Source of the DNA: Methanobacteriota archaeon
GTDB lineage: Archaea; Halobacteriota; Methanosarcinia; Methanosarcinales; Methanogasteraceae
DNA: 42,501 bases
Direction of reading: 5' to 3'
NCBI GenBank assembly: GCA_034659035.1
Contig: JAYEGI010000099.1
Coordinates: 1-42,501 of the forward strand
The notes under the pieces were generated by a model, which made no database searches, was not told the origin of the DNA, and saw nothing but the letters and a program-made list of their open reading frames with translations. Shown here piece by piece: positions 7,081-42,501 of this stretch. The translations under genes were made by a program, and so were the position numbers. The stretch's first letter is position 1. Each line of letters starts with the position of its first letter.

Positions 7081-7152
7081 CAGGGAATGTAACCGCGGAG
7101 GTAACTACTCAGGTATGTTGATTGGTCACCCGATTGCGATTCTACACTTTCT
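7081..7152. repeat. fragments of the MITE-like element (an internal piece abutting one terminal arm)
   Basis: 7101-7152 (GTAACTACTCAGGTATGTTGATTGGTCACCCGATTGCGATTCTACACTTTCT) is near-identical to the left arm of the full copy at 9025-9077. 7081-7100 (CAGGGAATGTAACCGCGGAG) matches the internal CAGGTAATGTAACCGCAGAG of the copy at 29708-29726. Confidence 0.65.
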
Positions 7153-7437
7153 CAGGACTTTCAAAGAAACGCAAATTGGCCTCTGATTTTTCTTAAAAAC
7201 CGTTAGCAATCGGACTTGTTGCTGTCTCTCAAGCTGTATGACATAACTTTTGATATCAGGTAACTACTCACGTTTTAGAAACCAGTGGGAACCAACCTCA
7301 TTTGTAAATTGCACCCCCGAATTCGAACCGCCATTTTCCTTCAGATTTACAGCCCCCGAATCACCACAAGCTTTACATGCCCGAAGACCTGATTGGGGTT
7401 ATCTTGTAGCACAACAAACCACATAGTGGAAACCAAC

Positions 7438-8922
7438 ATGGACCGGAGAACGGAAACGAAAATAATCGGGATAAGTGCACTGCTGATGGCAGTACTGCTC
7501 TCAGGAGTGGTGTTTGCATCAGCAGTCAGTGAAGATGGTTCGAAGGATAAAAGTCAGACAATATCAGACGGAGCCACAAACGACATAGAACTTGCATGGA
7601 GAGACGATCTGCAGGACATACATCAAAGCTACAACGTGAGTGAAAATGACGTATTGTTCGTAAAGAACGATCGACCTTATTATCTGGATAGGACAATTCT
7701 GGATAACGATATCGTAGTTATTGCGACCGAGACCGGTGAACCATCAGAGGGGGTGAAAGAAGGCGAGGATTGCGAAATAACAATATGCACAGAGGAGTTG
7801 TGCATGATCTGGGCGCAGGGAAAGAATCTTTCCACTGAGAACCTTATGCAGAACAGAGGGGTGCTTACAGATGCGTTTTTCAACCGCTTTGGAGGAAAAA
7901 TATCTAATCGATATGTAAGTATGTCTGATGATCCAAAAGTGTATAAAGACACCAAGCTGGTAGCTTACGGGTTCAGAATACGTCCTGACGGAGTGACAGA
8001 AGAGTATGGGGGGTATTGCAGTCAGGATTTAAGTGGATATAATGAAACACTGAAGAAAACAGAGATATGGTTCAGCACCCGGGACGAAGAGACTTGTGGC
8101 AAAAGAGCTTTTGCAGACAGTTATCAGGACTGGGCACTCATACAGACCCATGCGAACACGTATTCATGTTCACCTCATGGAAGTTATAGCACGACATGCG
8201 AATGTTTCTGGGACAGTACAGAAACGGATGACTCCAAAGACTATTTCATGATGAGAACCAAATTCAATATAGTACCTGGCATATATGAAAATATAGATCA
8301 TTTTCCAGACTGGCGTAATTACCGCGGCTATGTACGTCACACATGGAAGTACTATAACTATCCGGGAACCCGTGAGATGTATGATGCCCAACCAACCGAC
8401 GAAAGAGGTGAGACTTCTGTCGGCATAACTCTGTCAGCTATTAATGCGGCTTTGACATGGATAACGTCAATTCCAACATATTTACTGGATGACCAAAGTG
8501 ATTTGGGTACGGATGTGGCATTGTGGAAAGAAGAATTTAGTCCTTATTCCTCAACTTGTGGAGAGAGCCCGTTTTCAGTCACCCCGGGTTCTAGCATGAT
8601 GTGTTCGCAGAATGAAGCAAGAAGTGGTGACTGGATAGGACTTGCTTTCTTCGATACGAAACCTGTCTGGATTATATATGGACCGGGATTTTCTGAAGAA
8701 TACACTCCAGGATACCAGGGTTATTCAACTTCGGTCAGGTGGACCGGCTCAGGTTATGAGACACTGACACCCTGTGAGCGCTACGATACCAACGGCAATG
8801 GATACATAGACAAGGACAAGCTGAAGACTGCGATATACGACTATCTAACACCACCTATCGGGACAGTAATCAGCAGAGACGATCTGAAGATTTTGATCTA
8901 TGATTATCTGGACCACCTGTGA
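7438..8922 (+). CDS. hypothetical secreted or membrane-anchored protein with a C-terminal dockerin/EF-hand-like Ca-binding loop
   Basis: The track ORF starts at a TTG at 7393. The ATG at 7438 gives MDRRTETKIIGISALLMAVLLSGVVFASAVS, a signal or anchor sequence. The body is Cys/Trp/Tyr-rich with no family I recognise. The C-terminus has DTNGNGYIDKDKLKTAIYDYL, a dockerin-like loop plus helix. Confidence 0.6.
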   Translation: MDRRTETKIIGISALLMAVLLSGVVFASAVSEDGSKDKSQTISDGATNDIELAWRDDLQDIHQSYNVSENDVLFVKNDRPYYLDRTILDNDIVVIATETGEPSEGVKEGEDCEITICTEELCMIWAQGKNLSTENLMQNRGVLTDAFFNRFGGKISNRYVSMSDDPKVYKDTKLVAYGFRIRPDGVTEEYGGYCSQDLSGYNETLKKTEIWFSTRDEETCGKRAFADSYQDWALIQTHANTYSCSPHGSYSTTCECFWDSTETDDSKDYFMMRTKFNIVPGIYENIDHFPDWRNYRGYVRHTWKYYNYPGTREMYDAQPTDERGETSVGITLSAINAALTWITSIPTYLLDDQSDLGTDVALWKEEFSPYSSTCGESPFSVTPGSSMMCSQNEARSGDWIGLAFFDTKPVWIIYGPGFSEEYTPGYQGYSTSVRWTGSGYETLTPCERYDTNGNGYIDKDKLKTAIYDYLTPPIGTVISRDDLKILIYDYLDHL

Positions 8923-9024
8923 AGGCACTGTCTAAAAATCCAGTGATATCGGTATTTCCGCCCACCACGCCCACCATAGTGTCAAGTCAACTCTATAATG
9001 TCGTAAAGTATATACTGTATGTTC

Positions 9025-9252
9025 GTAACTACTCGAGGTATGTTGATTGGTCATCCGATTGCGATTCTACACTTTCTGGCAAGAAAAAATAACCGCGGAG
9101 GGCACGGAGGAACGTTAGGAGTGGCTAACCGCTTATTTCCCCTCCGCGCACTCTGCGGTTAAACTCCCCGTTTGACTCATGTGGCGTTCCATGCCAAGCA
9201 GTGCCGATATAGCGAAGTCGCATGATCGTGTTTTAGGTACCTGAGTAGTTAC
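9025..9252. mobile_element. full-length MITE-like element, copy B (about 228 bp)
   Basis: Terminal inverted repeats are GTAACTACTCGAGGTA at 9025 and TACCTGAGTAGTTAC ending at 9252. It aligns along its length, in reverse orientation, to the copy at 29623-29848. No coding capacity and no clear target-site duplication. Confidence 0.75.
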
Positions 9253-9508
9253 GACTACCGTTGATTTTGGGGACGAGACTATCGACAAGATCACCACCCT
9301 CACAAAGGAGCAGAAGGAGATTATTGAGAAGCTGGGTTTTGAGGGGGATTGTTGGGTGTAGCCTATAAAACTCGGAAAGTCAGGAATGTTTCGCGAACAT
9401 ATCTGCTACCTGTAAAGCGTGCGTTAATGCCCTGAACGCTAAAAGATGGGTTATACCGACGAACAATGTGGCGAAGGTATTGATTATAGAAGGTGATAAA
9501 AAACTTCG

Positions 9509-9586
9509 CATGCTCTGCGGTTATTTTTCTTGCCGGAAACCATAGAATCGTAATCAGGAGATTAACCGATACCCTCGAGTAATTAC
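9509..9586. repeat. solo diverged arm of the MITE-like element
   Basis: CTCTGCGGTTATTTTTCTTGCCGGAAACCATAGAATCGTAATCAGGAGATTAACCGATACCCTCGAGTAATTAC aligns at roughly three-quarters identity by eye to the right arm of the copy at 29775-29848. Confidence 0.6.
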
Positions 9587-9653
9587 GAATATTCGACCTG
9601 ATCCGGCAGCAGAGTCATTGCAATTATCCGCGAACGATGGATCTGAAGCGTTC

Positions 9654-15922: not shown

Positions 15923-16756
15923 ATGCAGGCAAAACAAGCGATAATCCGGTCGGCAGTCGATATTGCAGAACGCATCCACGCATCCGCCATATTACTTCCG
16001 GATTCGTACACTTCCGAGCGTATCGGGATAGAGACCGAGATTCCGGTCATGATTATTCCAAAGCAGGCATCTGATCTGCTGTACCGGATCATCCCGAACC
16101 GTGTCGAAAAAGAGGAGGCCATACTCCATGCGCGTATCCAGGGGATCGCTGTCGCGGGGTATCTGAAAGGCGCACTAAGTGGTGTGGTCGTCGGGGTGAT
16201 CGCTGGTCCAAGTTTTGATTCGATTATTGTATACGATCCAAGAGGGAGTTATGCGGTAAAATCGCTGCAAGAACGCGAGGGATTGGTAAATTCGGACGCG
16301 TTCCGCGCAGTTATGGAACTCGCACTCGCACTCGCACTCGAAGGAAGAGAAGGAAGACATATCGGAACCGCCTTTATTATAGGGGATTCGGAGAATGTCC
16401 TGCGCGCATCACATCAACTCCTGTTAAACCCATTCAAAGGGCACGACCCGCATGACCTGATAATCACAGACCATGGCAACTGGGAGACGTTTAAGGAATT
16501 TGCACAACTGGACGGCGTTTTTGTGGTATCTGGTGATGGGGTCGCCTGCGCATCAGGCAGGTATCTCGATGTGGATGCCAGATCTGTGCGCATCCAGCAG
16601 GGTCTTGGCGGCAGACATGCATCATCAGCAGCGATCACCGCTGAAACTGATGCGGTTGCGGTCGTCGTCTCCGAGTCAGGTGTGATCAGAGTCTACCAGG
16701 GCGGAGAACAGATCATCGAGATCGAGTCGGGTGGGGTGGGCTGGATGCTACCGTAA
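15923..16756 (+). CDS. dacZ: diadenylate cyclase (archaeal DacZ-like, DisA_N/DAC domain)
   Basis: 277-aa ORF. The C-terminal half has GTAFIIGDSENV, DGVFVVSGDG and GLGGRHASSAAIT...VVVSESGVIRVY, matching the DGA and RHR-type motifs of DAC domains. Confidence 0.75.
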   Translation: MQAKQAIIRSAVDIAERIHASAILLPDSYTSERIGIETEIPVMIIPKQASDLLYRIIPNRVEKEEAILHARIQGIAVAGYLKGALSGVVVGVIAGPSFDSIIVYDPRGSYAVKSLQEREGLVNSDAFRAVMELALALALEGREGRHIGTAFIIGDSENVLRASHQLLLNPFKGHDPHDLIITDHGNWETFKEFAQLDGVFVVSGDGVACASGRYLDVDARSVRIQQGLGGRHASSAAITAETDAVAVVVSESGVIRVYQGGEQIIEIESGGVGWMLP

Positions 16757-30850: not shown

Positions 30851-30934
30851 TCGCGGATCGGATCGCTACTACGTGCACGGTTATAGGGTGTGGATGTTTG
30901 CAGCACATTGGATCAAAATGATCCAAAACGGATG

Positions 30935-31310
30935 TCGCGCCAGAAGAAGATCTACTGTATCGATAGCAGCATAAGGGATGGAATATGGTTCACATTCTCA
31001 AAGGATATAGGGAGAACTGCTGAGAACGTAGTCTTCATGAGCCTCATACGATCCTGCGACGAAGGTTTTTTACTGGAAGAATGAAAAAAGGTGGGAAGTG
31101 GATTTTGTGGTAAAATCGGGGCTGGACGTTGGGGGACTTGTTCAGGTCTGCTGGTATTTGAGTGGTAAGGCCGAGGAGTGAGAGGTAGGAGATTGGCTGC
31201 GGCTATGGAGCATTTTAATCTGAAAAAATCCACAATAATAACTGAAGACACCTTGAAAGAAGAGTTGGTTAGGAATATGATCGTTGAGTTTGTACCTCTG
31301 TGGTTGTAGT
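30935..31310 (+). pseudogene. 5'-truncated, frameshifted C-terminal remnant of a COG1373-type AAA ATPase (DUF4143)
   Basis: Three frames together read KKIYCIDSSIRDG...DIGRTAENVVFMSL, then EVDFVVKSGLDVGGLVQVCWYL, then REVRGLAAAMEHFNLKKSTIITEDTLKEE...VEFVPLWL. This is the typical C-terminal third of these ATPases. The ATPase domain is absent. Confidence 0.6.
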
Positions 31311-31356
31311 TGTTAAAATGAGGATCGGTAACTCCGGGCGGAGGGATTGAAACTTT

Positions 31357-32745
31357 TCATCTCATCTCAAAATCATCCAAGTCATAAACAAAAAACCCCC
31401 TCTCTCTAAGTTCACACTTTCCTTCAATTTTCTTTGCTACAACCCCGAAATACTCCTTGCGCACATCGTTGTTCCACTGCACAAACCTTGATTTCCCTTT
31501 TAACTCTTCCAGAATGTTACTTGCTTTTCTTTCGCTCAAATGTTTCCATTTACATTCCACAAAGAGAATTTCGTTTGCGTTTCCATTCAAACAAACCGCA
31601 TCGATCTCAAGTTCCATCCTCTTTCCAGCATCCCTATAAAACCCCCACCATCTGCCGGTTTTCGTGGCTGAAAATGGGCACAGATATCTCAGCATCCCCT
31701 CTCTCACAAGTTTTTCAAATTTTATACCCACATACATGTTGAAATCCCTTTCCAATAGGTCTTCAACGATTCTTGTTTCTCCTATCTCGATATCGGACCT
31801 GTTGGGTTCAAAGAACAAAAAATAGAACTCAAAAAAATTGTCATCTATGGTGTAAAGACTTTTTTTACTTTTTATCTCGGTTACAGGGATTTCTTTTTTT
31901 ATTACTCCAATCCGCATCAGTGATTTCAGATACCGATCCATGTCAGATGTTTTGATCCCTGATTTATCTGATATCTCTGCAACCCTTGTGCGCCCCGAAG
32001 CAATGGCAGATAAGATGTTTTTGTAAATATCCGGTTCTCTGAACTCTTCTTTTAAGAGGAAATCCACTTCCTCGTAGAGCGTTCCTCTCTTCGACAGAAT
32101 CTGTTCCTTTGCATTTTCAAGCGCAGATTTTTCTGTGTCGAACTTCTCGAGATAAAACGGGACACCTCCTAAAATAGAATATATTTGTATAAGCTCTTCT
32201 TTTGAACTTTTTGGAAAAAATTCCTTGAGATACTCGAACTTAAGATGATTAACCTTTATATGTCCCGTTTTTCTACCGTATAGTGGATTTCTGTACCCGA
32301 GCAGTTCTTCCATCATGCTTATGGACGATCCGCAGATCACAAGCATCATATTCTCGTTCTTCAAAACGCAATCAATGACCTGCTGAAACAATGATGGAAC
32401 CGCTCCATCCTTTTCAACAAGGTAGGGAAACTCATCGAAAATGATTACAAGTTTTTCTTTCGCTTTTGACACTATATAAGAAAATATTTCCTCAAGATCT
32501 TCCGAAGCAATCTCCGGTTCTCCAAAAAATCTCGCAATTTGCTTTTTAAATCTTTGGACGTTTGTGGCAGTCCCTGCTTTGTTGCACAAGAAGTAAACGT
32601 GTGGAGTCTCTTTCACAAAATTCTTCAGGAGCTCTGTCTTTCCAATCCGTCTTCTGCCGTAGATTACGATAAAATCAAAGCTTTCTTTACCGTACCGCTC
32701 CTTTAAGAAGTCCAGTTCTTCTTCACGGTCAATGAATAGGAACAT
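31357..32745 (-). CDS. Arch_ATPase-family AAA ATPase with C-terminal DUF234 (PD-(D/E)xK-like) domain
   Basis: 462-aa ORF. FIDREEELDFL then Walker A GRRRIGKTEL and Walker B VIIFDEFPYL. The C-terminus has ELEIDAVCLNGNANEILFVECKWK, a D...ExK arrangement. AT-rich relative to neighbours. Confidence 0.85.
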   Translation of the reverse strand: MFLFIDREEELDFLKERYGKESFDFIVIYGRRRIGKTELLKNFVKETPHVYFLCNKAGTATNVQRFKKQIARFFGEPEIASEDLEEIFSYIVSKAKEKLVIIFDEFPYLVEKDGAVPSLFQQVIDCVLKNENMMLVICGSSISMMEELLGYRNPLYGRKTGHIKVNHLKFEYLKEFFPKSSKEELIQIYSILGGVPFYLEKFDTEKSALENAKEQILSKRGTLYEEVDFLLKEEFREPDIYKNILSAIASGRTRVAEISDKSGIKTSDMDRYLKSLMRIGVIKKEIPVTEIKSKKSLYTIDDNFFEFYFLFFEPNRSDIEIGETRIVEDLLERDFNMYVGIKFEKLVREGMLRYLCPFSATKTGRWWGFYRDAGKRMELEIDAVCLNGNANEILFVECKWKHLSERKASNILEELKGKSRFVQWNNDVRKEYFGVVAKKIEGKCELRERGFFVYDLDDFEMR

Positions 32746-32854
32746 AATCCTTATGTTTATGTTCCTAACATATAAACCTTCCAGAGTACTTGCAATGTGG
32801 TGGTGAAGAGTGGGTGATGGGTGTGCGAGTGACAGGGCGCGTTAGATGGGATGC

Positions 32855-33177
32855 GGATCGGATAGAAGGGTAGTTGATGGCGCGGCATCGATAATCACAC
32901 AGGATCCACTGCCCAGAATCATTTTCACGAACATCCGCTGGATCTCAAACTCGGCGCGATCATTATGGCACCAGTGGATTCCGCTCGCACAGACATTCTC
33001 ACATCGGTGGCGGCGTGTGTGGCAGAACGCGGGATCGACATCATGAAGGCGATCGCTGATGACCCGCGGCGTGCAAATCGCCCGACGCTGACTATCATAA
33101 CCGGTCGGCAGATGCCTGATGACCTGGTTGGGGAACTGCTGAAGTGCGATGGCATGCAAGGGGTCCGTGTCTGTTGA
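32855..33177 (+). pseudogene. duplicated, degraded copy of the 3' two-thirds of the ACT-domain gene
   Basis: Nucleotide-level similarity to 30513-30850. The last 70 codons are 53/70 identical (APVDSARTDILTSVAACVAERGIDIMKAIADDP... against TPVDAARTGILASVAVAVAERGISIMQAIADDP...). An internal deletion of about 27 nt and a frame change occur near 32935. There is no 5' part. Confidence 0.8.
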
Positions 33178-33340
33178 CTGTGTGCCGATATCGATACCAT
33201 GCATGTTTTTGGTGGGGGCGATGGTTACTTTCACCATGCTATTTGGGTGTGTTTATATGGTATGGGCGGGGATGTATGTATGTGGATGTGTAACGGTACG
33301 AAGTGTAGGGAACAAAATGAAGATATGAGGCAATTGAACC

Positions 33341-35242
33341 ATGTACAACTTTATCGTAGATTTGTTTACTGGAGATGATTATAGCTCTCTATTGAGTGAA
33401 AGTGAGGGGGATTTTAAAAATAAAAATGCCAAAGTTCTGATCGTGCCACCAAACAGGGATGATTCACCGTTTATTATTGAAAACTTGGATGATGAGGATG
33501 AAATTGACGAAAATCCACTATTAGATAAGTATGGGGGAAAGCTACGTAAATATTTCAATTTTAATAAGTTTATAAATCCAACTCATAACAACGCTAACAA
33601 TATCGGCAACAATTCGGCATTGATGAGTCATTCGCCCACACACTACAAACTTACAACAGCATTCATCGACAAAGATAAACAACATCCCGATGGAAACACC
33701 GTAATAAAATTTCCTCTGGAGAAAATCGAAACTTTTGAGAAATCAATCAAGAAGACCGCGTACTATAACCAGTTCCCGGAGCTTTGTGACCACGTGGCGA
33801 GTTTCTTTAGAGATTTTGACAAAATTAACCCTGAAAATAGTTTTGGTTTGGAGGAGAATAATTTCATCGTTTTTCTTGTAAATGAATCAGATATTGAGGA
33901 GTATTTAGATGTTGTTGACGATTACACCAGTGAAAAAATTCTGAAATATGAGACATTCATAGGAGAGTGTGACAGTTGTAGAAAGCAAGATGAACAACTG
34001 TATATATTGACCCGGGGAAATATGTTCGATCTAGGAAAGGATCGGAAATTTCTTCTCAGGCACCCTACACGATACAAAACCAACCCAACCTCAAAAAGTC
34101 CTGAAAATTTTAACGTTTGCAAAGAATGCGCCATGCGGATTTATGATTTCTTCGAGTACATCAAAAAATACAAGTTTTACCGATATGTATTTCCCACCAC
34201 CATAACGGTTGGCACAAACGATTACAGAGAGTATTCTTCCGATCCAATTGGCATTCTAAAAATGTTAAAAACGCTATACACTAGGAATCGCTCTCAGGAG
34301 TTCGATTATGTGATGATGATCACCGATCCGAAAGTCGAGAATATAGAGTTCAGGTACGTTAATAATTTTAATTATATTCTTCCAAATAAGAACCCTCCGA
34401 TCAACGTACAGGATATTCCGATACATTCGACATTGAAAGACCTTGAATCCAGGGGAAAGGAAGAGGGAATTACGTCCATCCAGAACGGGCGGGATAAATC
34501 AGTATTCTTGAGAGAACTGAACCTTATTTTCAACAACACTCTTGCGCGTTCTTTGTTTGAAACAGACCCAACGAATTTGATGAAATCACTTCATCCGTTC
34601 CTTAAGCTGAAAATCATTGAATATAATTTCATCATCAGAAACTTTATATATTTTCAGGATGTATCTTTCTTCGAGGACCGGGTTTATTCAAAGCTATTCA
34701 AAGAGATGCTCTCAGAACTGGTTACAAATCCAGGTCTTCGAGATAATATGAAGATAAGACCTAACAAAATCAGATTCTTCTTGACAATCTACTTTAAGTA
34801 TCTAAACATAGAGTCTAATGGGGGAGATACCATTACAGAATATACGGCACTGAAGGAGAAAATGAAAGATGTGAAATCTTTCGATCTGGAGAATGATTTC
34901 GAAGCGAGCTACTGCATGGGGCAGATATTTTACTATCTGTTGCAGGTCAGCAAAACACCGAACAGGCTGAACCTCTTCACCAAATATACTATGAACGTGC
35001 ATAACATGGATATATTAAAAACGAAGTTGGTTACAGTGCTCGAGAAGTATTCTCACAACGAATACCTTGATAATAATCGAAGATTTCACAATTTGATCGC
35101 CAATGTTCTGGCGTTTGAGTTTGAGAAGTCTTATGAAGACAATAAGATACCCCTGTACACGGGTTATTTTGATAGTAACTACTTGTATACTTCCACAAAG
35201 GAAAAAGAGGAACTGGGATCCCCACAAGAGGAGGAGAATTAG
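33341..35242 (+). CDS. cas8b: type I-B large subunit Cas8b (TM1802/Csh1-like)
   Basis: 633-aa ORF at the first position of a cas7-cas5-cas3 operon. It has the paired CxxC motifs (CDSCRKQ ... CKECAMRIY) that I associate with the Cas8b/TM1802 family. Very AT-rich. Confidence 0.7.
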   Translation: MYNFIVDLFTGDDYSSLLSESEGDFKNKNAKVLIVPPNRDDSPFIIENLDDEDEIDENPLLDKYGGKLRKYFNFNKFINPTHNNANNIGNNSALMSHSPTHYKLTTAFIDKDKQHPDGNTVIKFPLEKIETFEKSIKKTAYYNQFPELCDHVASFFRDFDKINPENSFGLEENNFIVFLVNESDIEEYLDVVDDYTSEKILKYETFIGECDSCRKQDEQLYILTRGNMFDLGKDRKFLLRHPTRYKTNPTSKSPENFNVCKECAMRIYDFFEYIKKYKFYRYVFPTTITVGTNDYREYSSDPIGILKMLKTLYTRNRSQEFDYVMMITDPKVENIEFRYVNNFNYILPNKNPPINVQDIPIHSTLKDLESRGKEEGITSIQNGRDKSVFLRELNLIFNNTLARSLFETDPTNLMKSLHPFLKLKIIEYNFIIRNFIYFQDVSFFEDRVYSKLFKEMLSELVTNPGLRDNMKIRPNKIRFFLTIYFKYLNIESNGGDTITEYTALKEKMKDVKSFDLENDFEASYCMGQIFYYLLQVSKTPNRLNLFTKYTMNVHNMDILKTKLVTVLEKYSHNEYLDNNRRFHNLIANVLAFEFEKSYEDNKIPLYTGYFDSNYLYTSTKEKEELGSPQEEEN

Positions 35243-36112
35243 ATGAACTATAATGGCATAGTGGTGGTAAATGCAAAGAATGCAAATTTCAATGCTGGTT
35301 TCGATGGTCTTCCAAGGAGATTGCCTACCGGGCGGATATTTGCTACCGATAAGGCATTAAAGTATTGCATAAGAGAGTATCTCTCAAAGAATGAGCCTGT
35401 GTTTGTCCAGAGGACCAAAGAGTTTCGCGATGTCAAGGATGGTGCACGGGTGGAACGATACCTGACATTAAAGGAAAATTACCTCAAGAAATGTAATAAA
35501 GAAGAGATGCCCAAGGATGAGGGAGTCATAATCAACGATCTCAAAGGGTTTATAGACATCCGGTTATTTGGAGTAGTATTCGCAGTTGATAGTAACATAT
35601 CTATGACCGGCCCCTGTCAGATAAATTACGGGATCAACAGGTTTGAGGGATCCAATATCTTCTCTTCTGAGATACTGTCCCCATATAGAAACCCAAACGA
35701 GAAAAGTAAAGATGCTCAGCAAACCACAATAGGCGAAGAATCCAGAGCAGACAACGTATACTACGTATATGACATCTGCCTGAACATGAACTCCGCTGAG
35801 CGGCAGGGAATCGAAGTAACGGATGACGACATAGCAAAGCTGAAGAACACATTGAAGTACGCTGTGGGCAACGTAACATCTACCACGATGTTTGGCTGTG
35901 AGACTGTGAGTATGCTCTGGTTCAAGAACAATGATGACCGGATATTTAACAATCTGAATTCGCTGGTGGAGATATATGAATCGGATGATGGAGTTGTCGT
36001 GGATTACTCAAAGGTCATGAAACTGGTGCTGGCAGACATCGATATCGATTCCCTTGAAGAATATAACAGCAAGGTTCAGAACATTATCCCAAAGCAGATC
36101 AATCCAGAGTGA
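35243..36112 (+). CDS. cas7: Cas7 (Csh2/Csd2-type backbone subunit)
   Basis: 289-aa ORF starting immediately after the cas8b stop. NAKNANFNAGFDGLPRRLPTGRIFATDKALKYCIREYL and DIRLFGVVFA/GPCQINYG match the Cas7 I-B/I-C family signature. Confidence 0.85.
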   Translation: MNYNGIVVVNAKNANFNAGFDGLPRRLPTGRIFATDKALKYCIREYLSKNEPVFVQRTKEFRDVKDGARVERYLTLKENYLKKCNKEEMPKDEGVIINDLKGFIDIRLFGVVFAVDSNISMTGPCQINYGINRFEGSNIFSSEILSPYRNPNEKSKDAQQTTIGEESRADNVYYVYDICLNMNSAERQGIEVTDDDIAKLKNTLKYAVGNVTSTTMFGCETVSMLWFKNNDDRIFNNLNSLVEIYESDDGVVVDYSKVMKLVLADIDIDSLEEYNSKVQNIIPKQINPE

Positions 36113-36133
36113 AATAAACCCACAGGTGACTAC

Positions 36134-36901
36134 ATGGAGACAACTCTGGATTATTTCTCTTCGTCTGGAGAAAATGAAGCTTGCAACCAGTCTATGAAGC
36201 TCCTGACCTTCAGGTTGCACGGGAGTTTTGCACATTTCAATCAGCCTATCAGCAACCGTTTCAGGAATACATATTCCACTATTCCAAAGCCCCAATTACT
36301 GGGACTTATCGGGTCGATCGCGGGTCTTGGGGGGTATGCGAATAATAAAACCTTCCCTGAATTCTATAGTCGGATTGGAGATCTCAAAGTTTATATCAGG
36401 TCTAATAACAATTCTGATAAGAAGTTTATAGTGAACTACAACAGTTTGAACAGTTTTTTGAACAACCGAAAGGACACCGGTTCTCCGAACGTAATAATTA
36501 ATGAACAGGTGCTGTTGGACCCGGACTATGAGATTGGTCTATTGCTGGATGAAAATAATGATCTGCACAACATTATCATTGAAAATATCCGGCATAACCG
36601 CAGTGTATTTCCTATATATTTGGGAAAGAACGAGTTTTTTGCAAACATCCAGTATCAATCCCTGAAAGACTATGAGATGAATTCCGCGAAAGAACCGAGG
36701 TGCCGCAGCATATTGCCCTTCGGTGAACTGGAAAGAGAAGGCACTAATAACATGAAACTGGAAATGCTTCCAGTGGGCTTTGATGAGACGTTCAAGTACA
36801 TCTATCGCTTAATGGCGATACCGCAGGAGGGGTGTGTTGTGCCGCTGAAAAACCCAGACAAATGCATCGCCTCGGGTGGCAATGTTTACTATGTCTTCTG
36901 A
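36134..36901 (+). CDS. cas5: Cas5 (type I-B)
   Basis: 255-aa ORF with AGGTGA 6 nt upstream. LLTFRLHGSFAHFNQP...YSTIPKPQLLGLIGSIAGLGG is the canonical Cas5 N-terminal RAMP motif. An alternative start is at 36194. Confidence 0.85.
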   Translation: METTLDYFSSSGENEACNQSMKLLTFRLHGSFAHFNQPISNRFRNTYSTIPKPQLLGLIGSIAGLGGYANNKTFPEFYSRIGDLKVYIRSNNNSDKKFIVNYNSLNSFLNNRKDTGSPNVIINEQVLLDPDYEIGLLLDENNDLHNIIIENIRHNRSVFPIYLGKNEFFANIQYQSLKDYEMNSAKEPRCRSILPFGELEREGTNNMKLEMLPVGFDETFKYIYRLMAIPQEGCVVPLKNPDKCIASGGNVYYVF

Positions 36902-39536
36902 TGCCTTCAGAGGGGTATTCAAAGATCTGGACCGAAGTTTAATCTCATCCAACCGGTTCTATTCTGCTCACAGGCGAGGGAACGATCTGGAATTGCTGGA
37001 AGATCATTCGGAGCTATGTAGTGGATATTTCTTGCACATAATCGAGGAATTGGGACTTGAACCGATACTTGATGGATTGATATCCGATCTCTTTGGAGAA
37101 CAACAACAAACTGAAATCAAGCAGATTATATCATTTGCGATTTATTACCATGACATCGGAAAACTGAATCCAAACTTTCAAAAAGTGAAAGTAAAAGGAA
37201 TTAGAGCATCCGGGAACACTCGCCACAGCTTTTTTTCAGAAAGGGTGTTAACTTCGTTTCTCCTGAGAAAGTTTCCGGAATTAAGAGGAGCCATATACCT
37301 GGCTGTCAACGTCGTTCGGAGCCATCATGGAAGATTAAATGATTTTACTACAGACGATTATCTCGAAAGTTCTGAAGAAAGAGAGATAATCCAACAAATT
37401 CTTCAAATAACGAATATTGAGGAGATGACAATATCAGAAGATGATAAAAGAGAGTTTTTCAGGAATGGTTTGGACTGGCACAAAACCTTTCTGTTAGTCA
37501 AACTTCTGTACTCACTACTTGTCCTGAGCGACTCATATTCAACGATGCACTATGCATATTCCTTCAATAGAAAGTATCCTTTGAATACACTGGACCAAAA
37601 AATCCGAGAAAGGATGACAGAATCGTATTCGAGGATTCCTTATAACTCAAATATAGATAAAACGGAGTTTGATGGCAGTTCTCATTGTAGTACCATAAAC
37701 GAACTACGAAGAGCGATTTTGATCGAGAGCAGTAACCGCATGAAGAAACTTCTGAAGGATGATAATAGAATCTTCATGCTTTCTGTTCCAACCGGTGGCG
37801 GGAAGACAAACATCTCCATGAAACTGGCGCTAGATATTCTTGAGTACGATGGGACGATAAAACGGTTGTTTTACGTGTTTCCTTACATTAACATAATTGA
37901 ACAGAACTACAAAGCGATAGATGACGCGTTATTCGACAAAGCACTATTCCCTGATAAAATCGGTCTTGTTTCAGACATATATTCTCGTGCGTACATGGAT
38001 AAGTTCCCAGATGAAACAGATGAAGATTCGGTAGCAACCCTGAAAAGGATGATGATCATACGGGATGATAATTTCCTGAACAACTGTGTAAATGTGATAA
38101 CCAATGTAAATTTTTTTAATGGGATTATTAAAAATGGGGGGAATAACCGCTACAAAATCGCTAACCTGTGCAATAGCATAGTTATCATCGACGAGATACA
38201 AACATTGAGCGATAAAAATATCAGGACGTTTTATGATTTTATTAAGGAAACAAGTAGAGATTTGAATATTTATTATATCATTATGAGTGCCACGCTTCCG
38301 AGTTTCAATGATTTTCTCGATGATGTTGAAGTTCCGCAGATCATCGACGATCCCCCTAAATATTACACTCATCCAGTATTTAAGAGGAACGAAATCGTTT
38401 TCAAAAAAGATATCAAAGACATAAACGGAATAAAAGAATTGTTAATCGCAGAAATCAATAAAAATTATCGAACAGGAAACGTAAAGATTCTTGTTACCTT
38501 AAATGTGGTAGATACTTCGAGAAAAGTGTACGAAGAGTTAAAATCTGATAATAGATTCAAGGAGTTCTCTTTTTATTTGTTAAACAGTACTACACCGAGC
38601 TTGCGAAGGAAGAAGATGATTGAGGAGATTAAAGATAAAACAAAAGAAGAGAGCATGATGATTGTTTCGACACAATCCATAGAAGCCGGTGTTGATATTG
38701 ATTGTGACTTTGGGATCAGAGATTATTCCATATTGGATAGCATAGAACAGATATCCGGACGAATTAATAGAGAATGTAATGCACAAAAAGCATGCGTTTC
38801 AAAGCTGTTCGTCATAAAGTACAAAGATGGCAAGTTAGCAGATTCTAAGAAGGTCTATGCTGGCCATGAGCGGTATAAAATTTTAATCAATGACAAAATC
38901 GACCAAGAGTGTGTTGAACACATATTGGACTGCAAGCGATTCGACAAATATTATGAAGTTTTATCTGGAGAATTGAAAAAAGTCGCAAAAGATTCCTTTC
39001 CTATAACCAATCGTGAAATAGATGATTTGCACTATCAAACGATAAACAATACCTTAGATGTAATTGATGACAAATTAGACAAAGTAGATATTTTTGTGTG
39101 CGAGGATATCCCGATAGAGAGTTTGTCTGAGTATGATCGAATTAAAATTGAGTCTTTGATAAACGATTCGACGATACGAAAGTTAGAGAAGAGTCACAAA
39201 ATACTATCAGATGGAAAAATAATCACTGAGAATGTTTATTGGGTCTGGAAAGAAATCCTGATGTCGACAGATAAATTTGGAGACGTGTACATCAGAAGAA
39301 AAATTACCAGTCTACTTAACCAGTTCATCATTTCGATAACCAATGTAAAAAACAAAACATATGATCAAGACCTTTCGGGATATCTCCTAACAGGGGGGTT
39401 TGTTGAGAAAGATGAACAATTCGATATTATTTTATCAACACCAGCATTCTCTGAATATTATTCATTCGCTGATGGTTTAAGATCGGATAAATTAAAGGAA
39501 GCACTAAAAACCCCCTCGCTTGGTGTTATCATCTAA
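36891..39536 (+). CDS. cas3: Cas3 fused HD nuclease and SF2 helicase
   Basis: The track ORF starts at a GTG at 36876; ATGs at 36882 and 36891 overlap the cas5 end. HD motifs are YYHDIGKLNPNFQ and VRSHHGRL. Helicase motifs are VPTGGGKTN (I), IIDEIQ (II) and MSATLP (III). Confidence 0.9.
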   Translation: MSSDAFRGVFKDLDRSLISSNRFYSAHRRGNDLELLEDHSELCSGYFLHIIEELGLEPILDGLISDLFGEQQQTEIKQIISFAIYYHDIGKLNPNFQKVKVKGIRASGNTRHSFFSERVLTSFLLRKFPELRGAIYLAVNVVRSHHGRLNDFTTDDYLESSEEREIIQQILQITNIEEMTISEDDKREFFRNGLDWHKTFLLVKLLYSLLVLSDSYSTMHYAYSFNRKYPLNTLDQKIRERMTESYSRIPYNSNIDKTEFDGSSHCSTINELRRAILIESSNRMKKLLKDDNRIFMLSVPTGGGKTNISMKLALDILEYDGTIKRLFYVFPYINIIEQNYKAIDDALFDKALFPDKIGLVSDIYSRAYMDKFPDETDEDSVATLKRMMIIRDDNFLNNCVNVITNVNFFNGIIKNGGNNRYKIANLCNSIVIIDEIQTLSDKNIRTFYDFIKETSRDLNIYYIIMSATLPSFNDFLDDVEVPQIIDDPPKYYTHPVFKRNEIVFKKDIKDINGIKELLIAEINKNYRTGNVKILVTLNVVDTSRKVYEELKSDNRFKEFSFYLLNSTTPSLRRKKMIEEIKDKTKEESMMIVSTQSIEAGVDIDCDFGIRDYSILDSIEQISGRINRECNAQKACVSKLFVIKYKDGKLADSKKVYAGHERYKILINDKIDQECVEHILDCKRFDKYYEVLSGELKKVAKDSFPITNREIDDLHYQTINNTLDVIDDKLDKVDIFVCEDIPIESLSEYDRIKIESLINDSTIRKLEKSHKILSDGKIITENVYWVWKEILMSTDKFGDVYIRRKITSLLNQFIISITNVKNKTYDQDLSGYLLTGGFVEKDEQFDIILSTPAFSEYYSFADGLRSDKLKEALKTPSLGVII

Positions 39537-39620
39537 CTGATTTCACGTCCCGATGATGTTGGATTGTCGGGTATTGGGAACATCGACAACGTTTTAACCC
39601 GCTACAGATACTGGCATACT

Positions 39621-39974
39621 ATGACAGACATACAGATACCCCCGATGATGGAAAAAAAGATTCATGCGTTGATTGAGGCTAAATACTACCCCTCGATCTC
39701 AGAAGCAATTAAAGATGCCTTCAAAACGCTATTCGCAACAAAACCCACTCTTAAAATAATTTCAGCAATACATTTATACGCAAATAACGAAGTTTCGGTC
39801 TCAAAAGCAGTAGAGATTGCCGGAGTCAGTATCGACGAATTCAAGGAAATTTTGGCGAGTCGTGGTGTGAAACGGGAAATATATCCTGATGAAAGAATTA
39901 ATGAGAACGTAAGAATTATCCTAAAACACAATAACGAATTAGACCGCCTCAAGAACGCGTTCCACACTTCATAA
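39621..39974 (+). CDS. small RHH plus UPF0175-like (antitoxin-type HTH) DNA-binding protein
   Basis: The ATG at 39621 lies within track ORF 39564..39974. N-terminal IQIPPMMEKKIHALIEAKYYPSISEAIKDAFKTLF looks like a ribbon-helix-helix strand and helices. AIHLYANNEVSVSKAVEIAGVSIDEFKEILASRGV resembles UPF0175 family proteins. Confidence 0.55.
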   Translation: MTDIQIPPMMEKKIHALIEAKYYPSISEAIKDAFKTLFATKPTLKIISAIHLYANNEVSVSKAVEIAGVSIDEFKEILASRGVKREIYPDERINENVRIILKHNNELDRLKNAFHTS

Positions 39975-39991
39975 CCATCCAGCTCACACTC

Positions 39992-40735
39992 ATGCGCTCC
40001 AAAATCACCATCCGCAAAACCACACCCACCCCGATCCACTACGACTACCAGTACGGTATAGCAGCGATGCTCTACAAAAAACTCGCACACGCGAATATCC
40101 GCTTAGCAAACGAGATCCATTCACACACCGGATTTAAGTTCTACACATTTTCAAACCTGCTCTTCGATGACCGAATCCCCTCCCGCAACGGCCTCAATTT
40201 CGAGCAGGCTCACTTCTACCTCTCATCCCCCGACCCCGAGTTCATCCGAAGTTTCACAGAAGGACTCCTGCAAGCTCCCGAATTTTACCTCCGACGCACT
40301 GAAACAGGCAAAGAGCGTGCCAGTATCCTGATAGAAAGAATCGAGATCCTCCCAAAAGAGACGATCAGCGAGGTCTGCAAGTGGAAGGCGATCTCCCCGA
40401 TCTACGTGAAGACGCAGCGGCTGCAGGACGGGCGCCTCCGCGATTTCGATCTATATCCAAAGGATGGTAAATTCTATGAGAACCTGCACACGAACCTTGT
40501 AGCGCGTTATAAGGAATACCACGGGCATGATGTCCACCACGACCATTTCGAGGTCACTGACACCAGAAAAGTGAAAGCAAAGCGGATAAAGATCGCAAAT
40601 ACCTATCGTAGATGTTCGCTCATGGAGTTTGAGGTGCAGGGAAGTCCCGAGTTGCTTGAGTTTGCGTATGAGGCGGGAATCGGTGAGAAGAACGCGATGG
40701 GGTTTGGGTGTTTGCAGCGCACGGGATCTGAATAA
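39992..40735 (+). CDS. cas6: Cas6 CRISPR RNA endoribonuclease
   Basis: 247-aa ORF. Double-RAMP architecture with N-terminal YQYGIAAMLYKKL, FKFYTFSNL and the C-terminal glycine-rich loop GIGEKNAMGFGCL. GC-rich, unlike the upstream cas genes. Confidence 0.85.
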   Translation: MRSKITIRKTTPTPIHYDYQYGIAAMLYKKLAHANIRLANEIHSHTGFKFYTFSNLLFDDRIPSRNGLNFEQAHFYLSSPDPEFIRSFTEGLLQAPEFYLRRTETGKERASILIERIEILPKETISEVCKWKAISPIYVKTQRLQDGRLRDFDLYPKDGKFYENLHTNLVARYKEYHGHDVHHDHFEVTDTRKVKAKRIKIANTYRRCSLMEFEVQGSPELLEFAYEAGIGEKNAMGFGCLQRTGSE

Positions 40736-40940
40736 CCCAAACTCGCGACTCGTGCACTGCACTACACAAAGATCCAAGAATCCGTGCAGTGTAATACACG
40801 CCTATTTGAGCAAACATGCCAGTAAGATTCGTATCAGTAAGATTCGTGGTAATGATTACACTTCACAAAAAGAGAGACTTCGGACGGGAGATTGAGGTTT
40901 TTCACTGGCGCACTAAAATTAACAGCTTATTGATCCATTT

Positions 40941-41013
40941 CAGTTCTTCCCCTTGTCGATAGGTAGGAACAGAATCCTTATGTTCGTGTTCCTAAACTAT
41001 GAACCTTCCAGGG
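40941..41013 (-). pseudogene. relic of the promoter and first codons of an Arch_ATPase paralogue
   Basis: 40964-41013 matches 32737-32786 (the start region of the intact ATPase gene) at 43/50 positions, and 40941-49 equals 32713-21 exactly. The start codon ATG is changed to CTG, and the frame decays after about 10 codons. Confidence 0.6.
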
Positions 41014-41146
41014 CGCCTGCGACATCCATGCTGCCTGATTCAGAAACAGGTGCGAGTCCAAAGGACTGCTGCGATGGAGCGTACTCTGGTGACGGGTATG
41101 TTGATGTACAGAGAAGAACAGAACAGAAGACAGGATTGATAGTTAC

Positions 41147-41243
41147 GTGGTGACCGCGTATGACTGAAACAGAGACTCGTAGGAAACTCGACATTGATAT
41201 CGGGGGCTGTAAAGTGGTGACCGTGCATGACTGAAACAGAGAC
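41147..41243 (+). repeat. solitary repeat(30)-spacer(37)-repeat(30) unit with CRISPR-like geometry
   Basis: GTGGTGACCGCGTATGACTGAAACAGAGAC (41147-41176) and GTGGTGACCGTGCATGACTGAAACAGAGAC (41214-41243) are 28/30 identical. They are separated by the unique 37 nt TCGTAGGAAACTCGACATTGATATCGGGGGCTGTAAA, and their outer flanks are unrelated. The repeat itself is certain; a CRISPR relationship is unproven. Confidence 0.6.
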
Positions 41244-41871
41244 CCAACCAGGCGAGACAGAGATCAAACCGGAATTCGAATCCAAATTCGAATCTGAAAC
41301 AGTACCTGAACCCGAACTCGAAACCGGACCTGAGAACATATACGCGGGAATACAGTCCGGAGCCGTTCGCATAACAGGTGTTAAGATCGACTACTATCAC
41401 ATCTGCCACACCAAGCTCTGGCTCTTCTCGCACAACATCACGCTTGAGGCAGGTCACGAGAACGTAGAGATCGGCAAACAACTGCACAAGGATCGTTATA
41501 AGCGGGATGGCAAGGATGTAACGATCGATAACACGATAAGCATAGATTTTGTGCGGCGTGGCTCAAGCATCGAACTTCATGAGGTGAAGAAGACGAATAG
41601 GATGGCGGATGCGGACCGGGCGCAGTTGCTATTCTATATTTACTACTTAAAGCAGAGGGGCGTTTCTGCTGAAGGCGTGATCAACTATCCGTTGATCCGG
41701 GAGACTGTGCGGGTCACGCTGACTCCGGACGACGAGGCGGTTCTGCAACGCGACATCGAAGAGATCGAGAGAATCGTACAGGGGGGTATGCCGCATCCAA
41801 AGCGAAAGCGGATTTGTGCGAAGTGCGCATACATCGAATTCTGCTTCTGCGATGAGGCGGTGGACGAATGA
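41227..41871 (+). CDS. cas4: Cas4 (RecB-like nuclease with Fe-S cysteines) with an acidic N-terminal extension
   Basis: 214-aa ORF. The core starts near ITGVKIDYYHICHTKLW. It has ELHEVKK (the ExK part of the nuclease motif), QLLFYIYYL and the C-terminal CAKCAYIEFC cysteine cluster. The first 45 or so residues are low-complexity and acidic. Confidence 0.85.
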   Translation: MTETETQPGETEIKPEFESKFESETVPEPELETGPENIYAGIQSGAVRITGVKIDYYHICHTKLWLFSHNITLEAGHENVEIGKQLHKDRYKRDGKDVTIDNTISIDFVRRGSSIELHEVKKTNRMADADRAQLLFYIYYLKQRGVSAEGVINYPLIRETVRVTLTPDDEAVLQRDIEEIERIVQGGMPHPKRKRICAKCAYIEFCFCDEAVDE

Positions 41872-41917
41872 GGTGTACGCGAGTTGATATAATCGAGACA
41901 AGGAGGGAAACACCAGA

Positions 41918-42501
41918 TTGAGATCAGACTACTACATTCTACAGGACGGGATTCTGAAACGGAAGGAGAACACCGTATATTTCCATAACAAGGAAGGAAA
42001 ACGGGTTCTTCCGATCAACAAGATCTACTCGATATACGCTTACGGAAAACTGTCCTTCTCGTCAGGCGTTGTCTCATATCTTGCGAAGAATGGCATCCCG
42101 ATTCACTTCTTCAACTACTACGGATTCTACGAGGGCAGCATGTACCCGAGAGAGACGTTAATAAGCGGAGATCTCGTGATACATCAGGCAGCACACTATC
42201 TTGACAGCGAGAAGAGGGGATATCTTGCCGCGCAGTTCATCGAAGGCAGCTCTCGGAATATCCTCAAGAATCTTGGATACTACTCACGGAGCAAAGAGGG
42301 CGTGCAAGATGCGATTGACCGGTACATCGAGAAGATTGAGCGCGAGATCGCACGTCTTCCGAGCGCGAACACGATTCCTGAGATGATGAACGTCGAAGGA
42401 AGGATGCGCGACATCTACTACAGTGCGCTCGACGTGATATTCCCTGAAGAGTACAAGATCACAAAGCGCACCCGCCGCCCTCCGGAAAACCGGATGAACA
42501 C
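41918..42501 (+). CDS. cas1: Cas1 integrase (5' part; continues beyond the window)
   Basis: Not in the ORF track because there is no stop in the window. A TTG at 41918 lies 10 nt after AGGAGGG and the frame stays open to the window end. Translation is RSDYYILQDGILKRKENTVYF...NGIPIHFFNYYGFYEGSMYP...NVEGRMRDIYY, typical of type I-B Cas1. Confidence 0.9.
   Translation, partial: MRSDYYILQDGILKRKENTVYFHNKEGKRVLPINKIYSIYAYGKLSFSSGVVSYLAKNGIPIHFFNYYGFYEGSMYPRETLISGDLVIHQAAHYLDSEKRGYLAAQFIEGSSRNILKNLGYYSRSKEGVQDAIDRYIEKIEREIARLPSANTIPEMMNVEGRMRDIYYSALDVIFPEEYKITKRTRRPPENRMN

Follow-up and report, generated by a model that had tools for sequence, protein, structure and literature searches.

Introduction

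Solitary repeat-spacer-repeat units within cas loci have been described as Cas-guided regulators, among them creA of the CreTA modules and CreR, and CRISPR integrases have been found to insert spacers at off-target sites. Here, both are compared with a repeat-insert-repeat unit at positions 41147-41243 of contig JAYEGI010000099.1 (assembly GCA_034659035.1), a 42,501-nt stretch of DNA from an archaeon of the Methanogasteraceae that was analysed at its full length and is referred to as the window. The unit lies at the start of cas4 in a type I-B locus and is probably the scar of an off-target spacer integration.

In haloarchaeal type I-B loci (PMC8501985, PMC9458426), creA consists of two repeat-like sequences, ΨR1 and ΨR2, that flank a spacer-sized middle (ΨS) in an intergenic region of the cas locus, and it neighbours a very small open reading frame (ORF), creT, with a strong Shine-Dalgarno (SD) sequence. 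The ΨR1 and ΨR2 of real creA elements agree at 11-16 of 30 positions, and each keeps the handle portion of the cognate repeat, with the 5'-handle formed by the last 8 nt of ΨR1 and the 3'-handle by the first 22 nt of ΨR2 (PMC8501985). Part of the Ψ-spacer, the seed proximal to the protospacer-adjacent motif (PAM), is complementary to the promoter of the neighbouring creT at a PAM-flanked site, and creT, which spans 4-6 codons in the described cases, has consecutive rare codons (PMC8501985). These codons are identical and tie up a rare tRNA. CreR is a solitary, degenerated mini-array within the cas locus whose ΨR1 resembles the repeat and whose Ψ-spacer partly matches, by a PAM, the promoter of effector cas genes (bioRxiv 10.1101/2023.03.10.532045).

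Off-target integration has been characterized in vitro for Cas1-Cas2 of Pyrococcus furiosus, a system with a 30-bp repeat and 37-bp spacers. Paired attacks occur 30-31 bp apart on opposite strands, at sites that are only loosely repeat-like and that show a strong preference for G, with G1, T2 and A29 enriched (PMC6698737). For integration of this kind in vivo in Escherichia coli, Nivala et al. (2018) is the work cited in PMC7054753 and PMC6698737.

Results and discussion

A 30-bp direct repeat encloses 37 bp at the start of cas4

The pair of 30-nt copies reported in the first-pass annotation of the window, which was made from the letters and their ORFs, is borne out to the base: the copies (R) occupy 41147-41176 and 41214-41243 on the forward strand, are identical at 28 of 30 positions and start 67 nt apart. 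Their pattern matches twice in the whole window, with no match expected in shuffled sequence, and this pair is the sole direct repeat of at least 21 nt at a spacing of at most 100 nt in the 42.5 kb. The unit stands alone, as had been claimed, and not in an array. The copies have sharp boundaries because the bases that adjoin them are unlike, C/A at the 5' end and T/C at the 3' end; a repeat search lengthens the pair to 35 nt because three of the five upstream bases match by chance. Between the copies lies a unique segment of exactly 37 nt (41177-41213, TCGTAGGAAACTCGACATTGATATCGGGGGCTGTAAA), hereafter the insert (I). With its length and its GC content of 46%, the insert falls within the range of 100 unique real spacers from arrays of related loci (35-40 nt, mean GC 45%), of which 11 measure 35 bp, 70 measure 36 bp, 11 measure 37 bp, seven measure 38 bp and one measures 40 bp. 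The succession of 30, 37 and 30 nt agrees with the type I-B repeat-spacer geometry originally proposed, the period of 67 nt comparing with 65-68 nt (70 nt once) in real arrays.

Each copy reads GT-GGTGA-CCGYGY-ATG-ACT-GAA-ACA-GAG-AC, that is, an SD sequence, 6 nt, an ATG and codons for T-E-T-E. In the upstream copy (copy 1), the SD sequence GGTGA is at 41149-41153 and the ATG at 41160-41162. The downstream copy (copy 2) supplies the SD sequence (41216-41220), the ATG (41227) and codons 2-6 of cas4 (41227..41871, forward strand; PF01930, E=9e-53; TIGR00372). The functional cas4 start lies in copy 2: all 23 of the 23 close Cas4 homologues inspected have MTE(T/A) there, and most open with MTETE. 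As also noted at first pass, copy 1 opens an ORF of 24 codons (41160..41234, forward strand; product MTETETRRKLDIDIGGCKVVTVHD*), the upstream ORF (uORF), and its stop codon TGA (41232-41234) overlaps the cas4 start within ATGACTGA. This layout suggests that Cas4 can be translated either from its own SD sequence or via reinitiation.

Related loci carry one copy and no insert

Related loci were gathered from genome and metagenome collections and via Cas4 homologues, the closest coming from metagenome-assembled genomes of anaerobic methanotrophic (ANME-2) archaea and Methanosarcinales, including Ca. Methanogaster. A single R with the same flanks on both sides is present in about 18 distinct loci (L001/L015, L003-L008, L014, L016-L020 and L030-L035), and the flank upstream of copy 1 in the window is the same as in these single-copy relatives. 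Only two of about 20 related loci, the window and L002 (Ca. Methanogaster), have the two-copy form, and the insert occurs in these two only, 36 of its 37 positions being identical. Copy 2 of the window is identical to the single R of L014, L030, L031 and L032. An assembly artefact is excluded because the same R-I-R structure is found in two independent assemblies.

The sequence upstream of R falls into two context classes. In class A loci, R is preceded by a conserved block of ~75 nt, and in class B loci, the gene of an AAA_14/DUF4143 ATPase ends just upstream of R; in L005, cas6 directly abuts R. As judged from these loci, the ancestral state is A-R-B, and the A-R-I-R-B arrangement of the window and L002 is a gain of 67 bp, of which 37 bp are new sequence and 30 bp come from duplication of the target. 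The insert is unrelated to the flanks and, in 14 shuffling tests whose best p was 0.015, to the native cas4-upstream sequence of either context class, so the gain is neither a plain tandem duplication, which the first-pass annotation had already excluded, nor an allelic recombinant. The candidate assignment of the insert as class B cas4-upstream sequence (GAAAC...GATAT...GTGGTGAC) was rejected on the same shuffling tests.

Off-target spacer integration as the probable origin

The unit is best explained as a scar left by full-site integration of a spacer at an off-target ('ectopic') position, the cas4 start, an explanation to which we give somewhat better than even chances. The locus's own Cas1-Cas2, with Cas4, would have attacked both strands of the cas4 initiation region 30 bp apart, with a G as the attack point on each strand, and would have joined in a prespacer of 37 bp. 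Gap repair would then have duplicated the 30-bp target, giving R-I-R, in which the insert is the ectopically integrated spacer and copies 1 and 2 are the upstream and downstream target duplicates. The candidate integrase subunit is the product of the type I-B cas1 gene (41918..42501, forward strand; TIGR03641, E=6e-68; PF01867), which is cut by the contig end. Since the duplicated target holds the SD sequence, the ATG and the first five full cas4 codons, the downstream copy would still drive cas4, and the insertion would for that reason have been tolerated and inherited, in this case by the two lineages represented by the window and L002. The upstream copy, with its duplicated ribosome-binding site and start codon, would have created the uORF that ends in ATGACTGA.

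Several features support this course of events. R is exactly 30 bp and the insert, at 37 bp, is within the 35-40 bp of the system, and relatives have an empty site. As in the true repeat, the ends of R are GT...AC, so that each of the two attack points falls on a G; these ends are shared by 0.29% of the 30-mers in the window, and G...C ends by 5.7%. The adaptation genes cas4 and cas1 adjoin the unit downstream. Neither cas2 nor the array is reached before the contig ends. True arrays were taken from five relatives (L001, L014, L018, L008 and L004), in which they follow cas2 or lie upstream of cas4. Loci L001, L014 and L015 have the true repeat as GTTCAAATCAGACCGTGGCGGGATTGAAAC, 30 nt in length, and those of L004, L008 and L018 differ from it by 1-2 substitutions; the arrays of close relatives have 17 to 52 repeats with this same repeat, and a conserved leader end, ...GGCGGCGGGCTTG, directly precedes the first one.

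The unit shares with the reported off-target ('neo-CRISPR') integrations a target duplication of repeat length, an insert of spacer length, G attack points with GT/AC borders, a site that is only loosely repeat-like and the presence of adaptation genes in the same genome. Unlike those, it would be a natural and inherited event in uncultured ANME-2 archaea, it sits inside the cas locus itself, and the duplicated target comprises a ribosome-binding site and a start codon. No second spacer, which would mark further growth, is seen at the unit. Target-site duplications made by transposons or casposons are likewise direct duplications around an insert with an empty site in relatives. These duplications are short, however, at roughly 2-15 bp, and they flank DNA of hundreds to thousands of bp that has terminal inverted repeats. 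Set against these, a CRISPR integrase alone fits a 30-bp duplication that encloses 37 bp, and we know of no other mechanism that gives such a structure.

A number of observations weigh against integration. It is from the geometry alone that we infer the involvement of an integrase. The interior of R is like the true repeat at chance level only, and internal motifs of the repeat and leader are not shared: R matches the true repeat at 10-11 of 30 positions in register on either strand, a level (at least 10) that 20% of window 30-mers reach, and its semi-global alignment scores 8, a value that some ten further sites, mostly coding ones, equal or exceed. The first-pass annotation had proposed precisely this comparison of the 30-mer with the true repeats and had held that a lack of similarity would count against its CRISPR-like reading; similarity is at chance level. 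No leader-like sequence was detected beside the unit, where four real leader-plus-repeat sequences gave local alignment scores of 14-17 against 41040-41180 (window-wide tile mean 15, maximum 28). Searches of the window, the 41 loci, the 100 real spacers and viral contigs, the last with three overlapping 19-20-mers of the insert, yielded no protospacer for it. This absence carries little weight because two genuine spacers used as controls also found nothing in viral contigs. Finally, the window, L002, L014 and L001 are ~91-96% identical pairwise in a star-like pattern, and the two carriers are not clearly sisters within this cluster, which includes the single-copy L014 and L001. Their relationship therefore requires poor resolution, spread by recombination or loss through precise R-R recombination.

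A by-eye correspondence between R and the true repeat (GACCG.G...GA.TGAAAC; 17-19 of 30 positions with one gap) was discarded, as it is at chance level in a window-wide semi-global scan; this gapped register would leave both copies sharing six extra 'spacer' bases. Elsewhere in the window, a coding 30-mer in the gene for DacZ (diadenylate cyclase; 16006-16035) matches the CRISPR repeat at 21 of 30 positions, where ~0.03 such matches would be expected in the whole window; no partner copy accompanies it, and the match is probably due to chance. The sequence GGGATTGAAAC at 31343-31353, which equals the last 11 nt of the CRISPR repeat, was considered as an ectopic repeat and rejected, since it belongs to the remnant of a DUF4143 ATPase pseudogene. 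In the L018 array, one spacer has an internal exact match of 15 nt to L002 2103-2117 (E=0.005), upstream of cas8b; that site is homologous to ~33312-33326 of the window, and the match is away from the seed end of the spacer and is not present in the window.

If off-target integration is indeed the origin, the unit is a footprint of CRISPR integrase infidelity that arose naturally and was inherited among methane-oxidising archaea that are uncultured, located at the start of their own cas4, and a new natural case of an event type that is already known. Such footprints are the proposed raw material for new CRISPR arrays and for CRISPR-derived regulators, and documented natural examples are few. 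Nivala and colleagues are said to have listed a small number, in Yersinia pestis and Sulfolobus islandicus. Overall, the observation made at first pass, its type I-B geometry and its exclusion of a plain tandem duplication hold, and the three functional readings attached to it (a CreTA-like module, an autoregulatory mini-array and an array relic) do not. The CRISPR-like geometry is probably meaningful, as a footprint of integrase infidelity rather than as a regulatory RNA gene. Both an integrase origin and a neutral, or nearly neutral, present state rather than a functional RNA gene are suggested by the comparisons above and below.

A possible duplication without an integrase

The main rival is an origin by template switching, microhomology-mediated repair or illegitimate recombination, in which the cas4 start was duplicated and 37 bp of filler were trapped between the copies. 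Such an origin is unlikely but has to be taken seriously. It is consistent with the chance-level similarity of R to the true repeat, with the flank that lacks a leader-like sequence and with the failure to find a protospacer in the collections listed above. The modules of the locus have also been shuffled into a mosaic, as seen in its two upstream contexts, in an HEPN/MNT insertion that is variable and in the remnant of an ATPase gene, so recombination is frequent here. Under this rival, however, the agreement with CRISPR repeat and spacer sizes would be coincidental: both lengths, exactly 30 and, for the insert, 37 within 35-40, would be needed by chance together with the GT...AC ends. The insert, moreover, is not significantly like either native class of cas4-upstream sequence, and the window has no other structure of this kind.

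Possible translational control by the upstream ORF

A second possibility, which concerns the present role of the unit, is that the uORF is now under selection as a translational control that adjusts expression of Cas4 and the adaptation module, either by coupling termination to reinitiation or as a leader peptide. We regard this as improbable. The uORF has a full SD sequence and an ATG, and its stop overlaps the cas4 ATG (ATGACTGA) in the classic layout for coupling. The two substitutions that set copy 1 of the window apart from copy 2 both strengthen a hairpin over the first SD sequence (-8 kcal/mol, z=-2.2), and the divergence of the segment between the window and L002 is lower than that of the sequence around it. 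On the other hand, the uORF is absent from the ~18 single-copy relatives, whose cas4 has the same SD sequence and ATG, and its product has no family match. The sole difference between the window and L002 inside the insert is non-synonymous in the uORF (Leu/His). One of the hairpin substitutions (GTGTATG) is also polymorphic in the single-copy loci L001 and L016, and for that reason selection is not read into the hairpin of copy 1.

Regulatory mini-arrays and the match at 7346-7359

A Cas-guided regulatory mini-array, either creA with a CreT-like ORF or CreR, in which a crRNA-like product takes Cascade to a promoter, is very unlikely. A repeat-spacer-repeat geometry inside a type I-B cas locus is what creA and CreR share with the unit, as is, for CreTA, a very small neighbouring ORF with a strong SD sequence. 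The other points in favour are a register shifted by 6 nt, in which each copy ends in ACTGAAAC, 7 of 8 positions of which match the 8-nt handle of the repeat (ATTGAAAC), and in which GACCG(T)G is common to the copies and the true repeat; the low divergence of the R-I-R segment between the window and L002 (2 of 97 nt, with ~7 expected; p ~0.02); and a 14-nt match of the antisense insert that is described below. The shifted register, however, leaves six shared 'spacer' bases (AGAGAC), and about ten other sites in the window score as well or better.

The similarities among the repeats run the opposite way from those of real creA (PMC8501985): the copies agree with each other at 28 of 30 positions and with the true repeat at chance level, unlike the ΨRs of CreTA, which diverge but keep their 8-nt and 22-nt handles. 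The handle portions of the copies match the true repeat at 5 of 8 positions (last 8 nt) and at 5-6 of 22 (first 22 nt). In place of a repeat, the duplicated sequence is the conserved SD and start of cas4. CreTA antitoxins are processed by Cas6 into a crRNA-like RNA. R folds unlike the true repeat, whose small hairpin it does not reproduce, and shuffled sequence folds as well as R or the entire unit (unit z = 0.0 sense, +1.2 antisense).

The insert also fails to behave like a Ψ-spacer. The seed complementarity to nearby promoters that had been suggested at first pass was not observed: no sense-strand seed (prefix) match of at least 9 nt occurs anywhere in the window in either register, and no match to the insert is present in 32746-33340, upstream of cas8b, or in 40736-41226, upstream of cas4. 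Thus, the insert matches neither an adjacent creT-like promoter next to a PAM nor, as in CreR, an effector cas promoter, and the proposed autoregulatory mini-array has no such target. The adjacent Arg codons CGT AGG that had been highlighted are present in the uORF, but they are two different codons and neither is rare here, their shares of the Arg codons in 18 genes being 9.5% and 16.5%, in contrast to the consecutive rare codons of creT; the uORF, with 24 codons, is also longer than the described CreT. A CreTA or CreR element would be expected to be retained across relatives, and the unit is missing from ~18 distinct related loci. A lone repeat-spacer-repeat unit in a cas operon is therefore, by itself, no evidence of CreTA or CreR. 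Two questions discriminate between the possibilities: whether the 'repeats' are closer to the real repeat than to each other, and whether relatives carry an empty site.

The 14-nt match concerns the reverse complement of the insert, TTTACAGCCCCCGA, which occurs exactly at 7346..7359 on the forward strand (insert side 41200-41213, minus strand) and begins precisely at the insert boundary, with the first antisense base. The probability of a 14-nt match by chance is ~6e-4 at that offset and ~0.01 anywhere in the insert. A parallel search with the 100 real spacers returned one partial match of 15 nt and one of 19 nt, so partial matches of this kind arise by chance. The site at 7346-7359 is TATA-like and intergenic, upstream of a dockerin-like gene. 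The strain-specific island that holds it is missing from four close relatives (L038-L041) and not conserved in two others; TTTACAGCCCCCGA is not a recurrent motif. Homologous regions of the site were sought via the dockerin-like gene and chorismate synthase, with negative or uninformative results, because the site lies within the strain-specific island. The match could be due to chance or could be a trace of the spacer source, in island-related DNA. Its role as a CreR-like seed of an antisense RNA is the least likely of these; the handle of such an RNA would be GTCACCAC, which matches that of the true repeat at 3 of 8 positions, and the target would be 34 kb away.

That the ectopic unit was later co-opted as a working guide, with an antisense crRNA-like RNA pairing through 14 bases (TTTACAGCCCCCGA) with 7346-7359, is accordingly a highly doubtful extension of the integration model. 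If it were true, the unit would be a Cascade repressor in the style of CreR or CreA acting on a strain-specific gene for a dockerin-like surface protein, and this repressor would have come from off-target integration and not from array decay, so that neo-CRISPR genesis would feed regulatory innovation.

The island itself spans ~7100-9650, downstream of the chorismate synthase gene, and includes the gene of the 494-aa dockerin-like protein (7438-8922). L038-L041 have other small genes, or nothing, at this position. The sequence GGTAACTACTCA(G/C)GT occurs twice in the island, at 7099 and 7259.

The weakest reading, a relic of a decayed CRISPR array once located between cas6 and cas4, has a trailer-like sequence after cas6 (40751-40822) and the array upstream of cas4 in relatives in its favour, but it fails because the single-copy state is ancestral, R being the translation-initiation region of cas4 and single-copy in all outgroups; the trailer homologue is ~330 bp upstream of the unit, the degenerate terminal repeats of the family still read GTTCAAATCAGACCGTTGCGGGAT..., unlike R, and the reading is hardly credible.

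The cas6-cas4 gap and other features of the locus

The right end of the window is a type I-B locus whose effector module, cas8b-cas7-cas5-cas3-UPF0175-cas6, occupies 33341-40735. The cas8b gene (33341-35242) is assigned by position and has no family match; cas6 (39992..40735, forward strand; TIGR01877, E=2e-45, with Pfam matches) is the last gene of the module. The UPF0175 (antitoxin-like) gene lies between cas3 and cas6 (39564-39974) and is also found in L030.

The 490-bp non-coding gap between cas6 and cas4 in which the unit was first placed requires revision: copy 2 is the SD sequence and start of cas4 and lies outside the gap, and the gap itself is a module junction. It contains a CRISPR-trailer-like sequence (40751-40822) and the conserved block of ~75 nt (41073-41146). 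The former, on the forward strand, is a homologue of the array trailer that follows the degenerate terminal repeat, and matches L016, L018, L003 and L004; its counterparts are at 166-241 in L016 and 3510-3585 in L018, where the degenerate terminal repeat ends ...GGGATYGTTTY. Such a terminal repeat may survive in part as the final cas6 codons (~40715-40735, CACGGGATCTGAATAA). The conserved block, also on the forward strand, adjoins the cas4 SD sequence in all class A relatives whatever the upstream gene, which varies among cas6, ATPase_2/DUF234 and DUF4143. No one frame or end point is kept across relatives in the gap, and the block may for this reason belong to the promoter or 5'-untranslated region of the adaptation module. 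The presence of a small protein gene within the gap was considered and rejected (frame 1 is stopped in L002, several relatives have a 1-nt indel, and there is no Pfam match), as was a degenerate leader-repeat junction in the block, for which the similarity is not significant. A perfect 13-nt direct repeat, CAGTAAGATTCGT, is present twice in the gap (40820-40832 and 40835-40847) and is bracketed by a 12-nt inverted repeat (40784-40795 / 40855-40866); together (40784-40866), these elements could be the binding site of a regulator.

Cas4 of the window, for which an exact search of a contig index gave no match, has an acidic, low-complexity N-terminal extension of ~48 aa. These residues (1-48; 41230-41370) are rich in Glu, Pro and Thr, vary in length among relatives (proteins of 205-222 aa) and are encoded in part by GAATYC hexamer repeats (41272-41293).

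In several relatives, a HEPN/nucleotidyltransferase (MNT) toxin-antitoxin pair of ~1.2 kb is found on the opposite strand between cas4 and cas1. L034/L035 (3688-4658), L002, L014, L006, L018 and L004 have the pair; it is missing from the window (cas4-cas1 spacer 41872-41917), L001, L003, L016 and L017. At 30931-31374, the window retains a stop-riddled remnant (80-88% identity) of the class B AAA_14/DUF4143 ATPase gene. The end of this remnant holds GGGATTGAAAC, and the intact genes in relatives end in GATTGAAAC. In L004, a solitary repeat beside an apparent cas8b remnant proved to be a one-spacer mini-array with a degenerate terminal repeat. This minimal array (758-914) comprises a leader, one repeat, one 37-nt spacer, the degenerate terminal repeat and a trailer, and it sits where the window has the whole cas8b-cas6 module, its flanks being homologous to 33004-33177 and 40751-40812 of the window. 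Finally, the window also encodes an archaeal RNase P RNA.

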